Below, one piece after another: positions 5,913-10,740 of a stretch of DNA of 13,024 bases (position 1 is its first letter; each line of letters starts with the position of its first letter). The notes beneath the pieces are model-generated. The model saw nothing but the letters and a program-made list of their open reading frames with translations, had not been told where the DNA came from and made no database searches. A program made the translations under genes and the position numbers. Source of the stretch: Candidatus Phoenicimicrobium oleiphilum. GTDB lineage: Bacteria; Atribacterota; Phoenicimicrobiia; Phoenicimicrobiales; Phoenicimicrobiaceae. The DNA is taken from contig JBDIWJ010000043.1 in the NCBI GenBank assembly GCA_039638295.1, forward strand, positions 1 to 13,024, in the 5' to 3' direction.

Positions 5913-7628
5913 ATGGAAATGCCAAAAAAAGGTTTTACCCATCAAAGAATTGGAGAAATATTATTAAACCAAGGTTTAATTACTTCTCAACAATTAGAAG
6001 AAGCCCTTAAAGCACAAAAAGAAGGTAATAAAAAAAAGCTGGGAGAAATCTTGGTGGATATGGGGGCGTTAAGTAGAGAAGAATTATATGAGGTTTTACA
6101 ATATGTTTATGAAACTGAATATGTGGATCTATCTAATTATGTAATAGATCCAGAGGTAATATCTCTTATTCCCGAAAAAACTGCTCTACAATTTACCTTG
6201 ATTCCTATAAGTAAAAATAAAGATGAGTTAGTTGTTGCTATGGCTAATCCTTTAGATGTTTACGCTATAGACTTTGTAAAAGATTACACCAAAGTTAAGA
6301 AGATTAAGTGTATGTTAGCTCCCGAAGAAGATATTGTGAATGCCATTAATAGTTATTATAAGTTAGGGGAATATGATGATATTATAGAAAAATTAGACAC
6401 TGAAGTAGTGTTTAAAGAAGAGGAAAAAGAGGAAGATTCTAAAAAATTAGAGGCAATAAGTAGAGAAGCCCCTATTATTCAACTAGTAAATATGTTAATT
6501 GTCCAGGGAGTAAAAGATAGGGCAAGTGATATTCATATTGAACCAAACGAAAGGGGTTTATTAATTCGATTTCGTATTGATGGAATGTTACATGATATCA
6601 GAACTTTACCCAACAAGATAAAATCAGCCGTCACTTCTCGAGTGAAAATATTGGCAAAAATGGATATTGCTGAAAGGCGTATTCCTCAGGATGGACGTTT
6701 TCAAGTACAATTCGGAACAAGAGAAGTTGATTTAAGAGTTTCTACAATTCCTACAGTATTCGGAGAAAAAACTGTTTTAAGATTATTAGATAAGAGTAAA
6801 GGTTTAATTAAATTAGAACATCTCGGTTTCTTGCCTAAACAATTAACTCAGTTTAAATCAATGATTTCTAAATCTTATGGAATAATATTACTTACAGGAC
6901 CTACCGGTAGTGGTAAAACTACTACTTTATATGCCGCATTAAATAAGGTAAATTCTAAAGATAAAAATATTATTACCGTCGAAGACCCTGTAGAATATAG
7001 ACTTGATAGAATAAATCAAATTCAAATTATACCCAAAATAAATTTGACTTTTGCTAATGCACTACGCTCAATATTACGACAGGATCCGGATATAATAATG
7101 GTTGGTGAAATACGAGATATCGAAACTGCAGAAATTGCCGTTCAAGCCGCTTTAACTGGACACTTAGTTTTAAGCACTTTGCATACTAATGATGCAGCAA
7201 GTGCATTAACTCGTTTGATTGATATGCAAGTCGAACCTTTTTTAATTTCCTCTTCGGTTATTGGAGTAATAGCTCAAAGATTAGTAAGAGTGATTTGTGA
7301 AAAATGTAAAGAGGAGTATATACCCAGTGAAGAAGTATTGAGCGAGCTTAATATTAAGAATAATTTAAAGAATAATAGTAAAATTAAATTATATAGAGGA
7401 AAAGGGTGCTCTTTTTGTAAAAATACAGGATATTATGGAAGAACCTCTATATATGAACTTATTGAATTAGATGAGGAGATTAGATCTCTTATTGTTTCTA
7501 AAGCTTCTAGTGATGTAATTAAAGAGGTTGCTATTAAAAAGGGTATGATGACTCTAAAGAATAGTGGATTAGAAAAAGCAATGCAGGGAATTACTACTAT
7601 AGAGGAAGTTCTAAGAGTCGCAGGATAA
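5913..7628 (+). CDS. pilB: Type IV pilus / type II secretion assembly ATPase (PilB/GspE family) with N-terminal MshEN domain
   Basis: ASDIHIEP, RRIPQDGR, Walker A GPTGSGKTT, TVEDPVE, LRQDPDIIMVGEIRD, TGHLVLSTLHTND, Zn cysteines CEKC...CSFC. N-terminal RIGEILLNQGLITSQQLEEALKAQ. Confidence 0.92.
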   Translation: MEMPKKGFTHQRIGEILLNQGLITSQQLEEALKAQKEGNKKKLGEILVDMGALSREELYEVLQYVYETEYVDLSNYVIDPEVISLIPEKTALQFTLIPISKNKDELVVAMANPLDVYAIDFVKDYTKVKKIKCMLAPEEDIVNAINSYYKLGEYDDIIEKLDTEVVFKEEEKEEDSKKLEAISREAPIIQLVNMLIVQGVKDRASDIHIEPNERGLLIRFRIDGMLHDIRTLPNKIKSAVTSRVKILAKMDIAERRIPQDGRFQVQFGTREVDLRVSTIPTVFGEKTVLRLLDKSKGLIKLEHLGFLPKQLTQFKSMISKSYGIILLTGPTGSGKTTTLYAALNKVNSKDKNIITVEDPVEYRLDRINQIQIIPKINLTFANALRSILRQDPDIIMVGEIRDIETAEIAVQAALTGHLVLSTLHTNDAASALTRLIDMQVEPFLISSSVIGVIAQRLVRVICEKCKEEYIPSEEVLSELNIKNNLKNNSKIKLYRGKGCSFCKNTGYYGRTSIYELIELDEEIRSLIVSKASSDVIKEVAIKKGMMTLKNSGLEKAMQGITTIEEVLRVAG

Positions 7629-7641
7629 ATAGGTAGACAAG

Positions 7642-7676
7642 TAGAATACAGAATTCAGAAGCCAGGAGTCAGAATG
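7642..7676 (+). repeat. Left heptamer arm of the four-helix-bundle cassette
   Basis: TAGAATA-CAGAATT-CAGAAGC-CAGGAGT-CAGAATG. Contains the AGGAG RBS (7664-7668) and the ATG (7674-7676). Confidence 0.9.
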
Positions 7677-8039
7677 AGGAAACCAGCTAAAACTTTTCAA
7701 GATTTAATAGTATGGCAAAAGTCGTATAAGTTTGTTCTTGATTTATATAAATTAACAAAAGAATTCCCAAAAACTGAAATTTATGGTTTGTCCTCCCAAA
7801 TTCGACGTTCAGCTGTATCAATTCCTGCTAATATTGCTGAAGGATTTAAGAGGAAAGGAAAAATTGATAAAGCCCGTTTTATGAATATTGCTCATGGGTC
7901 TTTAGAAGAATTGCGCTGTTACTTATTTTTAGCAAGTGATCTTGGATATTGTGATTCTTCACAACATTTATTACAAATTGAAGAAATAAGTAAATTATTA
8001 GAAGCATATTATAATTCACTTCTGAATTCTGACTCCTGA
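7674..8039 (+). CDS. Four helix bundle protein (TIGR02436 / 23S rRNA intervening-sequence protein / Avd-like family)
   Basis: 121 aa with the family signature FQDLIVWQKS...LY..T..FP..E.YGL.SQIRRSAVSIPANIAEG..R......F..IA.GSL.E....L..A..LGY. Confidence 0.93.
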   Translation: MRKPAKTFQDLIVWQKSYKFVLDLYKLTKEFPKTEIYGLSSQIRRSAVSIPANIAEGFKRKGKIDKARFMNIAHGSLEELRCYLFLASDLGYCDSSQHLLQIEEISKLLEAYYNSLLNSDS

Positions 8040-8050
8040 CTACTGAATAC
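8018..8050 (-). repeat. Right (inverted) heptamer arm of the four-helix-bundle cassette
   Basis: ACTTCTG-AATTCTG-ACTCCTG-ACTACTG-AATAC. The reverse complement of 8026-8050 matches 7651-7675 at 22/25. Contains the TGA stop (8037-8039). Confidence 0.9.
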
Positions 8051-8088
8051 ATAAGTAAATTATTTTTAAATAAGGAGAAATGTTTTTT

Positions 8089-10740
8089 ATGAAATATATG
8101 TCTAGTTGCGAAATTAGAGAAAAATTTTTAAAATTCTTTGAAAGTAAAGGACACAAAATAATCCCCAGTGCATCTCTGGTTCCTGCAGATCCCAGTATTT
8201 TATTAACCATTGCTGGCATGGTTCCCTTCAAACCAATATTTTTGGGTCAGGTTAAGTCATCTTTGAAAAGAGCTACTACGTGTCAAAAATGTATTCGAAC
8301 AACTGATATTGAAAATGTAGGTAAAACAGCTCGTCATCATACATTTTTTGAGATGTTGGGAAATTTTTCTTTTGGTGATTATTTTAAGAAAGAGGCGATT
8401 CAATGGGGATGGGAATTTTTTACTGAGGTTATAGGATTTCCAGAGGAAAAGTTATGGGTGTCGATATATAAGGATGACAATGAAGCTTACGATATATGGC
8501 ACAATCTTATTGGACTTCCCGAGGGAAAAATTATTAGATTAGGAGAAGAAGATAATTTTTGGAAAGTTGGGCCTACTGGTCCTTGTGGACCTTGTTCGGA
8601 AATTTATATTGACTTAGGAGAAGAGAAAGTATCAGAAAAGGGTGGAGGAGTTGGAGTGGATGGCGAAAGATATTTGGAATTATGGAACTTAGTATTTATG
8701 CAATACAACCGTAATGAAGATGGTTCACTTACTCCTTTACCAAAAAAGAATATAGATACCGGCTTGGGTTTAGAAAGAATAGCATCTGTGTTACAAAAAG
8801 CTGATACTGATTTCGAAACAGATCTATTTTTTCCTATTATAAATTTTGTTGCTAAGAATGCAGGCGTAAAATATCATGAAGATGAGAAAAAAGATTTAGC
8901 TTTAAAAGTAATTGCTGACCATATAAGAGCTTTAGTTTTTATGATTGCTGATGGAATTATGCCTTCAAATGAAGGACGGGGATATGTGCTTCGAATGTTA
9001 TTGAGAAGAGCTTTTCGTTATGGTAGATGGCTTAATTTTAATCAGCCTTTCTTATATGAAATTGCTCCTGTGGTAATTAACCTAATGAAGGATGTATATC
9101 CTGATACAGCAAAAGCAGAAGGTCAAATTTGTCAAATAATACTTACAGAAGAGAGAAAATTTCAAGAAACTCTAAATGTGGGAATTCAAATTTTAGATAC
9201 GATGAAAAATGAATTAAAGAAAAAGAATAGGAAAATGCTTGGAGGAGAAGATGCATTTAAGCTTTATGATACTTATGGTTTTCCTATAGAATTAACTAAA
9301 GATATTCTTAAAGAGGATGGATTTGGAATTGACGAAGAAGATTTTGAACAAGAGATGAAAATTCAAAGAGAAAGATCACGAAAAATTTGGGTAGAATCGA
9401 AAATTAATTTTCAAAGTAATAAAGACAAAGAGATAATTTATGAGAAAATTCTTAAAGATTGCGGAGAAACAGAATTTACTGGATATGAATGTAAGATGGA
9501 AAAAGCCAAAGTAATCGCCATTATAAAAGAGGGCAAAATAGTAAGCAAGGTAAAAGAAGGGGATAAATGTGAAATAATTTTAAATAAAACTCCATTTTAC
9601 GCTGAAAAAGGCGGGCAAATTGGAGACCGAGGAGAATTTATATCCTCTAAAAAAAATGATAATTTACTACTTGCCATATCAGATACTCAAAGCCCTGTCG
9701 AAGGTCTTGTTGTCCATTTTGGAAAGGTAGTTAAAGGTGAAATAAAAATTAATGAAGAGGTAGTCGCCAAAGTAGATTTAACCAGAAGAAATGCGATTGC
9801 CCGAAATCATACCGCTACCCATCTTTTACATCGCGCGCTTAGAGATGTATTAGGAAATCATGTAAAACAATCAGGGTCCTTAGTAAATGATACCCATCTT
9901 CGCTTTGATTTTAATCACTTTGCCCCCTTAACTAAAGATGAATTAGATAAAGTAGAAGAATTAGTAAATAGAAAAATATTAGAAAATTTGGAAATAGAAA
10001 CAAAGGTAACCAGTTTTGACCAGGCCAGGGAAATGGGAGCGATTGCCCTCTTTGGAGAAAAATATGGAGAAAAAGTAAGGGTAGTAAAGATAGGAGAATA
10101 CAGTTTAGAATTATGTGGAGGAACACATTTAGAGAATACATCCAATATTGGTTTATTTAAAATATTAAATCAAGAAGGAATAGGAAGTAGTATAAGAAGG
10201 ATAGAAGCTGTAACTGGTGAATATGCCCTAAGATATGTTAAAGAAAGAGAAAATATTATAGACGATATTTCTGATAAATTACAAGTTGTTCCTTCGGAAA
10301 TTATCGTAAAATTGGATCAAATATTAGATAATCTTAATAATTTAAAGCGAGAAATTAAAATTACTCGAAATAGATTGGCTCGGTATGAAATTGAGGAAAT
10401 AATTTCTAAAATAAGAAAAATTAAAGAAATAAATATTATATCGGCTAAAGTTGAAGCTTCAGATAATAGTGATTTAAGAAATTGGGGAGACCTGATTAAA
10501 GAAAAGATTAAGTCAGGCATAATATTATTAGGAACGAAAATAGAAGAAAATAGAGTTGCTTTGTTGGTTATGGTAACTGATGATCTGGTAATGAAGGGTT
10601 TTGATGCTGTAAAGATTATAAAATCAATAGCTCCAATTGTAAATGGAAAAGGTGGAGGCAAAAAAACATTGGCTCAAGCAGGGGGGTCAGAAGTCAATAA
10701 ACTAAACCAGGCTTTAGCCAAAATATACGAAATTATTTAA
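8089..10740 (+). CDS. alaS: Alanine--tRNA ligase
   Basis: AGMVPFKP, CQKCIR, RHHTFFEMLGNFSFGDYFK, GPCGPCSEI, IDTGLGLER, editing HTATHLLH and ELCGGTH, C-terminal GKGGG...AQAGG. Start at 8089 preferred over 8080 on spacing from AAGGAG (8072-8077). Confidence 0.97.
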   Translation: MKYMSSCEIREKFLKFFESKGHKIIPSASLVPADPSILLTIAGMVPFKPIFLGQVKSSLKRATTCQKCIRTTDIENVGKTARHHTFFEMLGNFSFGDYFKKEAIQWGWEFFTEVIGFPEEKLWVSIYKDDNEAYDIWHNLIGLPEGKIIRLGEEDNFWKVGPTGPCGPCSEIYIDLGEEKVSEKGGGVGVDGERYLELWNLVFMQYNRNEDGSLTPLPKKNIDTGLGLERIASVLQKADTDFETDLFFPIINFVAKNAGVKYHEDEKKDLALKVIADHIRALVFMIADGIMPSNEGRGYVLRMLLRRAFRYGRWLNFNQPFLYEIAPVVINLMKDVYPDTAKAEGQICQIILTEERKFQETLNVGIQILDTMKNELKKKNRKMLGGEDAFKLYDTYGFPIELTKDILKEDGFGIDEEDFEQEMKIQRERSRKIWVESKINFQSNKDKEIIYEKILKDCGETEFTGYECKMEKAKVIAIIKEGKIVSKVKEGDKCEIILNKTPFYAEKGGQIGDRGEFISSKKNDNLLLAISDTQSPVEGLVVHFGKVVKGEIKINEEVVAKVDLTRRNAIARNHTATHLLHRALRDVLGNHVKQSGSLVNDTHLRFDFNHFAPLTKDELDKVEELVNRKILENLEIETKVTSFDQAREMGAIALFGEKYGEKVRVVKIGEYSLELCGGTHLENTSNIGLFKILNQEGIGSSIRRIEAVTGEYALRYVKERENIIDDISDKLQVVPSEIIVKLDQILDNLNNLKREIKITRNRLARYEIEEIISKIRKIKEINIISAKVEASDNSDLRNWGDLIKEKIKSGIILLGTKIEENRVALLVMVTDDLVMKGFDAVKIIKSIAPIVNGKGGGKKTLAQAGGSEVNKLNQALAKIYEII

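Follow-up and report, generated by a model that had tools for sequence, protein, structure and literature searches.

The closest described counterparts of the locus analysed here are the intervening sequences (IVSs) of 23S rRNA. As described in the available part of PMC4990558, the IVS of Coxiella 23S rRNA combines an ORF of a four-helix protein family with tandem GACAGAT heptamers; its terminal stem measures 28 bp, and the first of the repeats is the site of RNase III cleavage. A second point of reference is Avd, the DGR accessory protein, a pentamer whose RNA ligand comes from the Avd locus itself and has bases flipped out between the protomers (10.1101/2023.10.23.563531, available text), and whose homology to PF05635 proteins is noted in the accessible portion of PMC10053308. 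Facing arrays of heptamers have also been described in Xanthomonas (PMC4692102, available text), and a term search of the main texts of PMC4692102 and PMC4679880, as far as these were available, yielded no reference to four-helix or S23 genes. No account of such a cassette outside rRNA was found in a literature survey that covered the main texts of mostly openly accessible papers; searches by family name returned nothing for TIGR02436 and found PF05635 only in the context of DGRs, and the accessible part of PMC5524665 merely lists the gene in a table.

This report concerns a cassette within a 13,024-nucleotide stretch of DNA from Candidatus Phoenicimicrobium oleiphilum, referred to throughout as the window. 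The cassette belongs to a real family of IVS-like units in operon spacers, for which mobility based on the arms and recognition of the arms by the encoded protein are likely. It brings together three puzzles, namely the role of a big protein family with solved structures, the origin of rRNA IVSs and the overabundance of 7-nt repeats between genes, and cassettes of this kind likely seed the unexplained 7-base repeats of bacterial genomes.

Organization of the Cassette

The original prediction, made from the letters of the window, described a gene set between inverted heptamer arrays that hold its RBS, start codon and stop codon, and this arrangement was recovered in full (Table 1). The left arm is made of the units TAGAATA, CAGAATT, CAGAAGC, CAGGAGT and CAGAATG, which start at 7642, 7649, 7656, 7663 and 7670; both arms are of the CAG(A/G)A heptamer type in inverted arrangement, and the right arm encodes the final codons of the gene (NSDS-stop). 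The arms are complementary at 21 of 23 positions (7653-7675 with 8026-8048), or at 22 of 25 when the left arm is taken as 7651-7675, a perfect 13-bp core being included. Among the 1311 ORFs of the genome, the inverted match of the flanks of this gene ranks second (score 17; 99th percentile 10).

Table 1. Coordinates of the cassette, its neighbours and related gene-less units. Positions without a contig prefix refer to the window; C numbers are other contigs of the same genome.
Feature	Position	Strand	Remarks
pilB/GspE ATPase gene, upstream host gene	5913..7628	+	PF00437 and PF05157; stop codon 7626-7628
Left arm, five heptamers	7642..7676	+	AGGAG 7664-7668; ATG 7674-7676
Four-helix-bundle gene	7674..8039	+	121 aa; PF05635 / TIGR02436
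Right arm, four clear inverted heptamers and one degenerate	8018..8052	-	clear units 8018-8045; TGA 8037-8039 inside
alaS leader	8053..8088	+	AAGGAG 8072-8077, outside the stem
Alanyl-tRNA synthetase gene (alaS), downstream host gene	8080..10740	+	named from translation
Internally deleted four-helix cassettes, arms intact	C35:7975-8180, C35:15039-15249, C35:17314-17532		
Gene-less mini-hairpins 1-4	C13:11200-11330, C41:71-197, C32:1373-1497, C32:18140-18260		window's unit
Gene-less mini-hairpins 5-8	C15:22824-22935, C64:1520-1690, C56:2303-2453, C33:12893-13035		window's unit

Folding of the whole region gave a z of -2.19, with 3 of 100 shuffled sequences equally stable. The arms had been expected to pair in the transcript, loop out the ORF and hide its RBS, and at the level of prediction they do so: in the predicted fold the gene's own AGGAG is fully paired and the RBS of alaS is 49-85% unpaired. 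The accompanying suggestion of several pairing registers is not favoured, since the predicted folding ensemble contains one register with a probability of 0.995 and an alternative 13-bp register at about 0. No promoter-like site was found upstream of the gene within 7500-8200. The cassette, placed between pilB and alaS, is outside any rRNA gene, and the sole Rfam match within the window is a 6S RNA. This 6S RNA occupies 2559-2794 and precedes a 5-FTHF cyclo-ligase gene, which is its usual arrangement.

The Encoded Protein

The protein scores 128.4 bits against PF05635 (curated cut-off 33.8) and 122.3 against TIGR02436 (cut-off 24), and 36.4 bits against the NCBIfam Avd model NF033474, which is below the threshold of 80. 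Its predicted structure (pLDDT 96.6) has four helices, with Xcc0516, BT_0352 and Avd as the best fold matches; the model superimposes on Xcc0516 (2GSC, five chains) with TM 0.88, Z 20.3 and 42% identity, and on Avd with TM 0.77 and Z 13.9-14.1. The identity to the five-chain 2GSC, together with the available part of PMC4990558, suggests that the protein is a homopentamer. Among 80 sequences, Q42, N53 and E79 are invariant and R45, S49, E56 and S76 almost so. The clade of the window protein is under purifying selection, with a median dN/dS of 0.105 and a maximum of 0.24 in 18 disjoint pairs.

The cassette encodes no known transposase, Pfam giving PF05635 and a sub-threshold bAvd match alone. 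No reverse transcriptase was found among the ORFs of the window, nor any match to PF00078 in the genome, which is 91% complete; the genome does contain an rnc gene.

Distribution and Specificity of the Repeat Arms

The same package of gene plus arms was anticipated for paralogs and relatives, and the comparison bears this out. The 80 best relatives, which are 59-72% identical and represent the best-scoring matches rather than a random sample, come from Cyanobacteria, Nitrospirota, Acidobacteriota, Verrucomicrobiota, Planctomycetota, Bacteroidota, Bacillota, Desulfobacterota and other hosts. Two tandem CAG(A/G)A units facing inward are present on both sides of the gene in 61/80 and on at least one side in 74/80; arrays in the wrong orientation number 2 and 2 among these relatives, and 3 of 295 control windows match. 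Across the whole PF05635 family, likewise represented by best-scoring rather than random matches and without L197-L200 (divergent proteins) and a few broken genes, 128 of 188 loci with full flanks have arrays on both sides, which are inverted, not direct, in 111 of the 128. The repeat period is 7 in 124 loci, 8 in 26, 6 in 5 and 9 in 2.

The stop codon falls within a repeat unit in 67 of the 80 relatives. An arm that contains the RBS characterizes the window protein's clade, occurring in 38 of 71 members having an ATG; other protein clades have the RBS in a purine-rich spacer instead. Where both neighbours are known (67 loci), they form 52 distinct pairs, none of which includes pilB or alaS. 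The GC3 of cassette genes follows that of the host (rho 0.86). No relatives were found in viral contigs or in 50,697 phage records. Plasmid records matching the gene number 43; close relatives (59-69% identity; H1-H10) reside on large plasmids of cyanobacteria, which may carry the gene from host to host.

The left and right arms of one locus share unit variants with an overlap of 0.43, versus 0.21-0.22 after shuffling (34 loci below 80% identity), and a control for GC leaves this value unchanged. Coupling of this kind agrees with constraint on arm pairing, and either selection to preserve pairing or conversion of one arm by the other would produce it. Unit similarity between loci grows with protein identity, from 0.21 at 30-50% to 0.86 above 90%. 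Several clades with differing units can inhabit one host, as in the present genome, where the paralog on contig C3 has the unit TAGTATA. Relative to its nearest relatives, the window's unit has been retained at a dS of 1.4-2.1, which suggests a sequence-specific constraint. Conservation of the unit is explained in part by its encoding the RBS and the C-terminus, and clades with RBS and stop codon outside the arms nonetheless keep their own unit.

A code linking protein residues to unit bases did not emerge. His at column 104 accompanied CG-containing units in 21/22 versus 22/103 loci, a contrast that comprises only 4 independent pairs and is not significant. Fixed beforehand as a rule and applied to 40 new array-bearing loci, it scored 0/1, the sole His locus having no CG. 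Lys107 went with units free of CG in 17/17 cases, versus 13/17 for Arg, a weak difference, and a scan of columns in 77 representatives found none above the permutation maximum (best z 5.0; null 95% 6.8).

Orientation, Transcripts, and the Possibility of an mRNA-Level Intervening Sequence

Gene-bearing cassettes mostly share the direction of the genes on either side (141 of 174 loci), and 6 run against both. Mismatches in paired arms favour the sense strand (G-U 114 vs A-C 84), and the sense duplex is the better one in 49/80, suggesting a weak strand lean. Both biases would be expected if the cassette were an intervening sequence acting at the level of mRNA, in which RNase III cuts the stem, releasing a piece of about 400 nt and dividing the pilB-alaS transcript in two, while the protein binds or protects the RNA and perhaps feeds an RNA-templated insertion, as Avd serves a reverse transcriptase. 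The presence of rnc, the Avd fold and a build equal to that of the Coxiella IVS, cut by RNase III at its first heptamer (PMC4990558, available part), argue in the same direction. The strand lean is weak, however, the genome has no PF00078 match, gene-less copies occur in both orientations, and neither an excision nor a circular RNA was seen. The runs examined, three of RNA and five of DNA, came as contigs, a form in which RNA ends are lost and gaps in RNA coverage carry no weight. The contigs of the three RNA runs contain no joint that leaves the gene out; one RNA-run contig (7661-8144) crosses the right arm and another covers the whole stretch, although either may be DNA. On this evidence, an mRNA-level intervening sequence is considered unlikely. 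A joint from 7627 to 8090 over the cassette, seen in a low-depth DNA run, was set aside, as it differs at 6 of 75 letters and most likely comes from a related organism.

Gene-Less Arrays and Hairpins in the Same Genome

The genome displays intermediate stages, from the intact cassette through internally deleted ones to gene-less hairpins that are dispersed and share the window's unit. Counted with seven unit classes, defined from cassette flanks and in some cases after viewing the genome's own arrays, there are 349 non-coding and 28 coding arrays. Opposite-facing pairs of arrays within a spacer follow the inward order of a cassette in 104 of 106 cases, and unit classes therefore nest rather than stand side by side; since an inverted repeat reads alike on both strands, the fact that orphan arrays run left then right is not evidence of strand. 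Arrays outnumber genes by about 350 to 2, the assembly contains no intact gene matching the commonest unit classes, and no near-identical second copy of the window gene was found in the genome.

Three cassettes on contig C35 have lost internal sequence and kept both arms. At the junction occupied by one of them, relatives have the whole gene; C35:15039-15249 and C35:17314-17532 share the same deletion, are 85% alike and lie in different spacers. Eight mini-hairpins in eight spacers have a common loop and are oriented 5 versus 3 with respect to transcription. The loop of one of the eight contains an inserted GTAG REP. A weak match on contig C49 was dropped from this group, having no arms. The simplest reading of the gene-less hairpins is copying or inversion at the DNA level through the arms, combined with selection for the gene's borrowed transcription; copying of DNA is indicated by the hairpins themselves, the deleted cassettes, the orphan arrays in cassette geometry and the occurrence of both orientations. 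The likeness among the eight mini-hairpins extends beyond arms and loop into the flanks, as would be expected if spacers rich in repeats underwent gene conversion among themselves and the protein took no part.

Such observations lend themselves to an account in which the repeats are passive, consisting of satellite hairpins that grew by slippage and have a host role, for example in transcript stability. The excess of arrays over genes, the commonest classes without an intact cognate gene, the failure to find a residue-base code and the copying of flanks along with units all favour this account. Opposed to it are the inward geometry of the opposite pairs, units that differ by protein clade inside one host and match across phyla, and the retention of their own unit by clades whose RBS and stop codon are outside the arms. 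This passive account, in which the gene would be linked to the repeats via its RBS and stop codon only, move by ordinary recombination and have a job unrelated to them, is judged quite improbable.

Two other features of the genome were recorded. Ordinary genes lie between outward-facing arms of two adjacent spacers at C51:5929-7279, C4:1739-2549 and C4:43026-44496, and these arms could pair across the intervening host gene. The genome has one Y1 transposase, associated with other repeats: a Y1 (HUH) transposase-like gene at C23:17300-18600 is flanked by short palindromes that recur after the next gene.

History of the pilB-alaS Junction

A junction tree covered 37 pilB-alaS rows. In the sister family, 16 of 17 junctions are 13-245 nt long, and the remaining one, of 429 nt and partly masked, contains other arrays, with no PF05635 match on its contig. 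Among 18 readable junctions of the cassette's own family, an intact four-helix gene is present in the window only. The junction of the same-genus genome G001 retains 18 nt of the gene, the gene end and a decayed right arm, and so does not qualify as a clean empty site. Three own-family junctions keep the right arm together with the leader, and one keeps the left arm, the alaS leader being present at remnant junctions of relatives as well. Another junction carries a frameshifted four-helix gene of a different clade, 44% identical and with its own unit. GIY-YIG-type inserts between TGTC-tagged repeats occupy four junctions (two confirmed by Pfam, two by eye), including the locus with the left arm; GTAG REPs are present at five and other arrays at one, and two are bare. 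The cassette is therefore an old insertion in its own family, at a spot of high turnover.

The 18-nt piece in the same-genus junction is able to form a GCAGGA / TCCTGC pairing with the pilB end, the corresponding window positions being 7620-7625 and 7823-7828, and is perhaps a replacement hairpin or a deletion guide. TGTC-tagged inverted repeats of REP-like type enclose short GIY-YIG genes in the window's genome (C3:13903-14218) and in the pilB-alaS spacer of relatives (L040:2118-2432; L042:951-1283). The available text of PMC3733652 describes CGTC/TGTC-tagged REPs as having no dedicated enzyme and makes no mention of GIY-YIG; these genes may be the partner enzyme of TGTC-tagged REPs.

These findings qualify two expectations. 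That the insertion comes and goes at this junction was supported by the outgroups, which do not have it, whereas the clean empty sites foreseen in the nearest relatives proved to be remnants. The idea of a mobile cassette stands insofar as arm-bounded gene-less units have been copied between spacers; the window copy itself looks old rather than recently mobile, given the absence of a close copy in the genome, its host-like GC3 and the remnants in its nearest relatives. Inspection by eye showed no obvious target duplication; the nearest relatives hold remnants, and the bare junctions have diverged too far for alignment.

In a search of 86 genomes of the phylum, an intact gene of the window's clade was found in the window's own alone (E <= 1e-33; assemblies incomplete). 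Triple arrays of the window's unit are present in 29/29 other genomes of the family and in 1/22 of the sister family. Arrays maintained in this way raise the question of a domesticated host regulator, in which the pentamer would read orphan arrays in operon spacers and tune mRNA stability or translation, its own arms providing negative feedback. Strong purifying selection, the 349 non-coding versus 28 coding arrays and the predicted full pairing of the gene's own RBS are in keeping with such a function, and a repeat-binding post-transcriptional regulator has been proposed for TAACTGA arrays (PMC4679880, available text). The gene, by contrast, is patchily present and often frameshifted or deleted, and that of the window's clade has been lost in the other family genomes searched, where the arrays are retained. 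A regulatory role is very unlikely on balance.

Proposed Mechanism

The explanation that we prefer, at about even chances of being correct, is that a promoter-less cassette spreads by DNA-level copying based on its arms and that its protein recognizes its own arm units. Copying would use the arms for recombination or template switching, perhaps with assistance in trans because the cassette encodes no known transposase. Since the promoter is borrowed from the host, copies that carry the gene would last only where they are co-oriented with a host transcript. Within this transcript, the arms are predicted to close a stem of about 23 bp, and the host would tolerate the cassette because the insert, its own RBS hidden, is looped out and the alaS RBS left free. 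RNase III may cut the arm stem, as in the rRNA version. By analogy with Avd, a pentameric ring would hold single-stranded arm units, one per subunit; such binding would fix the sequence of the unit and favour maintenance or copying of the cassette.

Several observations stand against this explanation. The preset His104-CG rule failed on new loci, arrays persist without a cognate gene (29/29 family genomes, against the gene in 1/86), and there is no near-identical second copy of the gene, no evident target duplication and a host-like GC3. A broader proposal, which is possible though doubtful, would make PF05635 proteins the center of undescribed, transposase-free selfish elements. Each pentamer would know its own 7-8-nt unit, drive the copying of cassettes and hairpins into operon spacers and prefer the loops of older hairpins as targets; the elements would be the source of rRNA IVSs and heptamer arrays, and the protein an ancestor-like relative of Avd.

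Comparison With Known Systems

The cassette is IVS-like in its build and is neither an IS nor a DGR. With the ORF-bearing IVSs of 23S rRNA (S23p; helix 45 in Coxiella burnetii, and Leptospira), as covered in the available part of PMC4990558, it shares the protein family, a length of about 400 nt, terminal inverted repeats that pair into a stem and leave the ORF looped out (here predicted), tandem heptamers ahead of the start codon and a sporadic distribution. Unlike them, it lies between protein-coding genes, has a usable AGGAG, belongs to a clade under purifying selection and has gene-less copies dispersed in the genome. Being outside rRNA, it is not a member of the IVS group.

The protein resembles the DGR accessory protein Avd (PDB 4DWL, 8UB7) in its four-helix fold, with TM 0.77 and Z about 14, but is about 12% identical to it and under the NCBIfam cut-off, and no reverse transcriptase or template repeat lies nearby. 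REP/REPIN-RAYT and TIR-TIRYT systems likewise consist of a small gene in its own inverted repeats with gene-less copies in spacers (PMC3733652, available text), and the parallel extends to the pilB-alaS junction of relatives, where GTAG REPs are present. The cassette differs from REP-RAYT in that its gene is not an HUH tyrosine transposase and its arms are tandem heptamers rather than tagged palindromes. The heptamer arrays of Xanthomonas, Nostoc and Beggiatoaceae, as described in the available texts of PMC4692102 and PMC4679880, are similarly intergenic, often form facing pairs and occur in unrelated phyla; in the cassettes, unlike those arrays, each unit goes with a particular clade of the protein.
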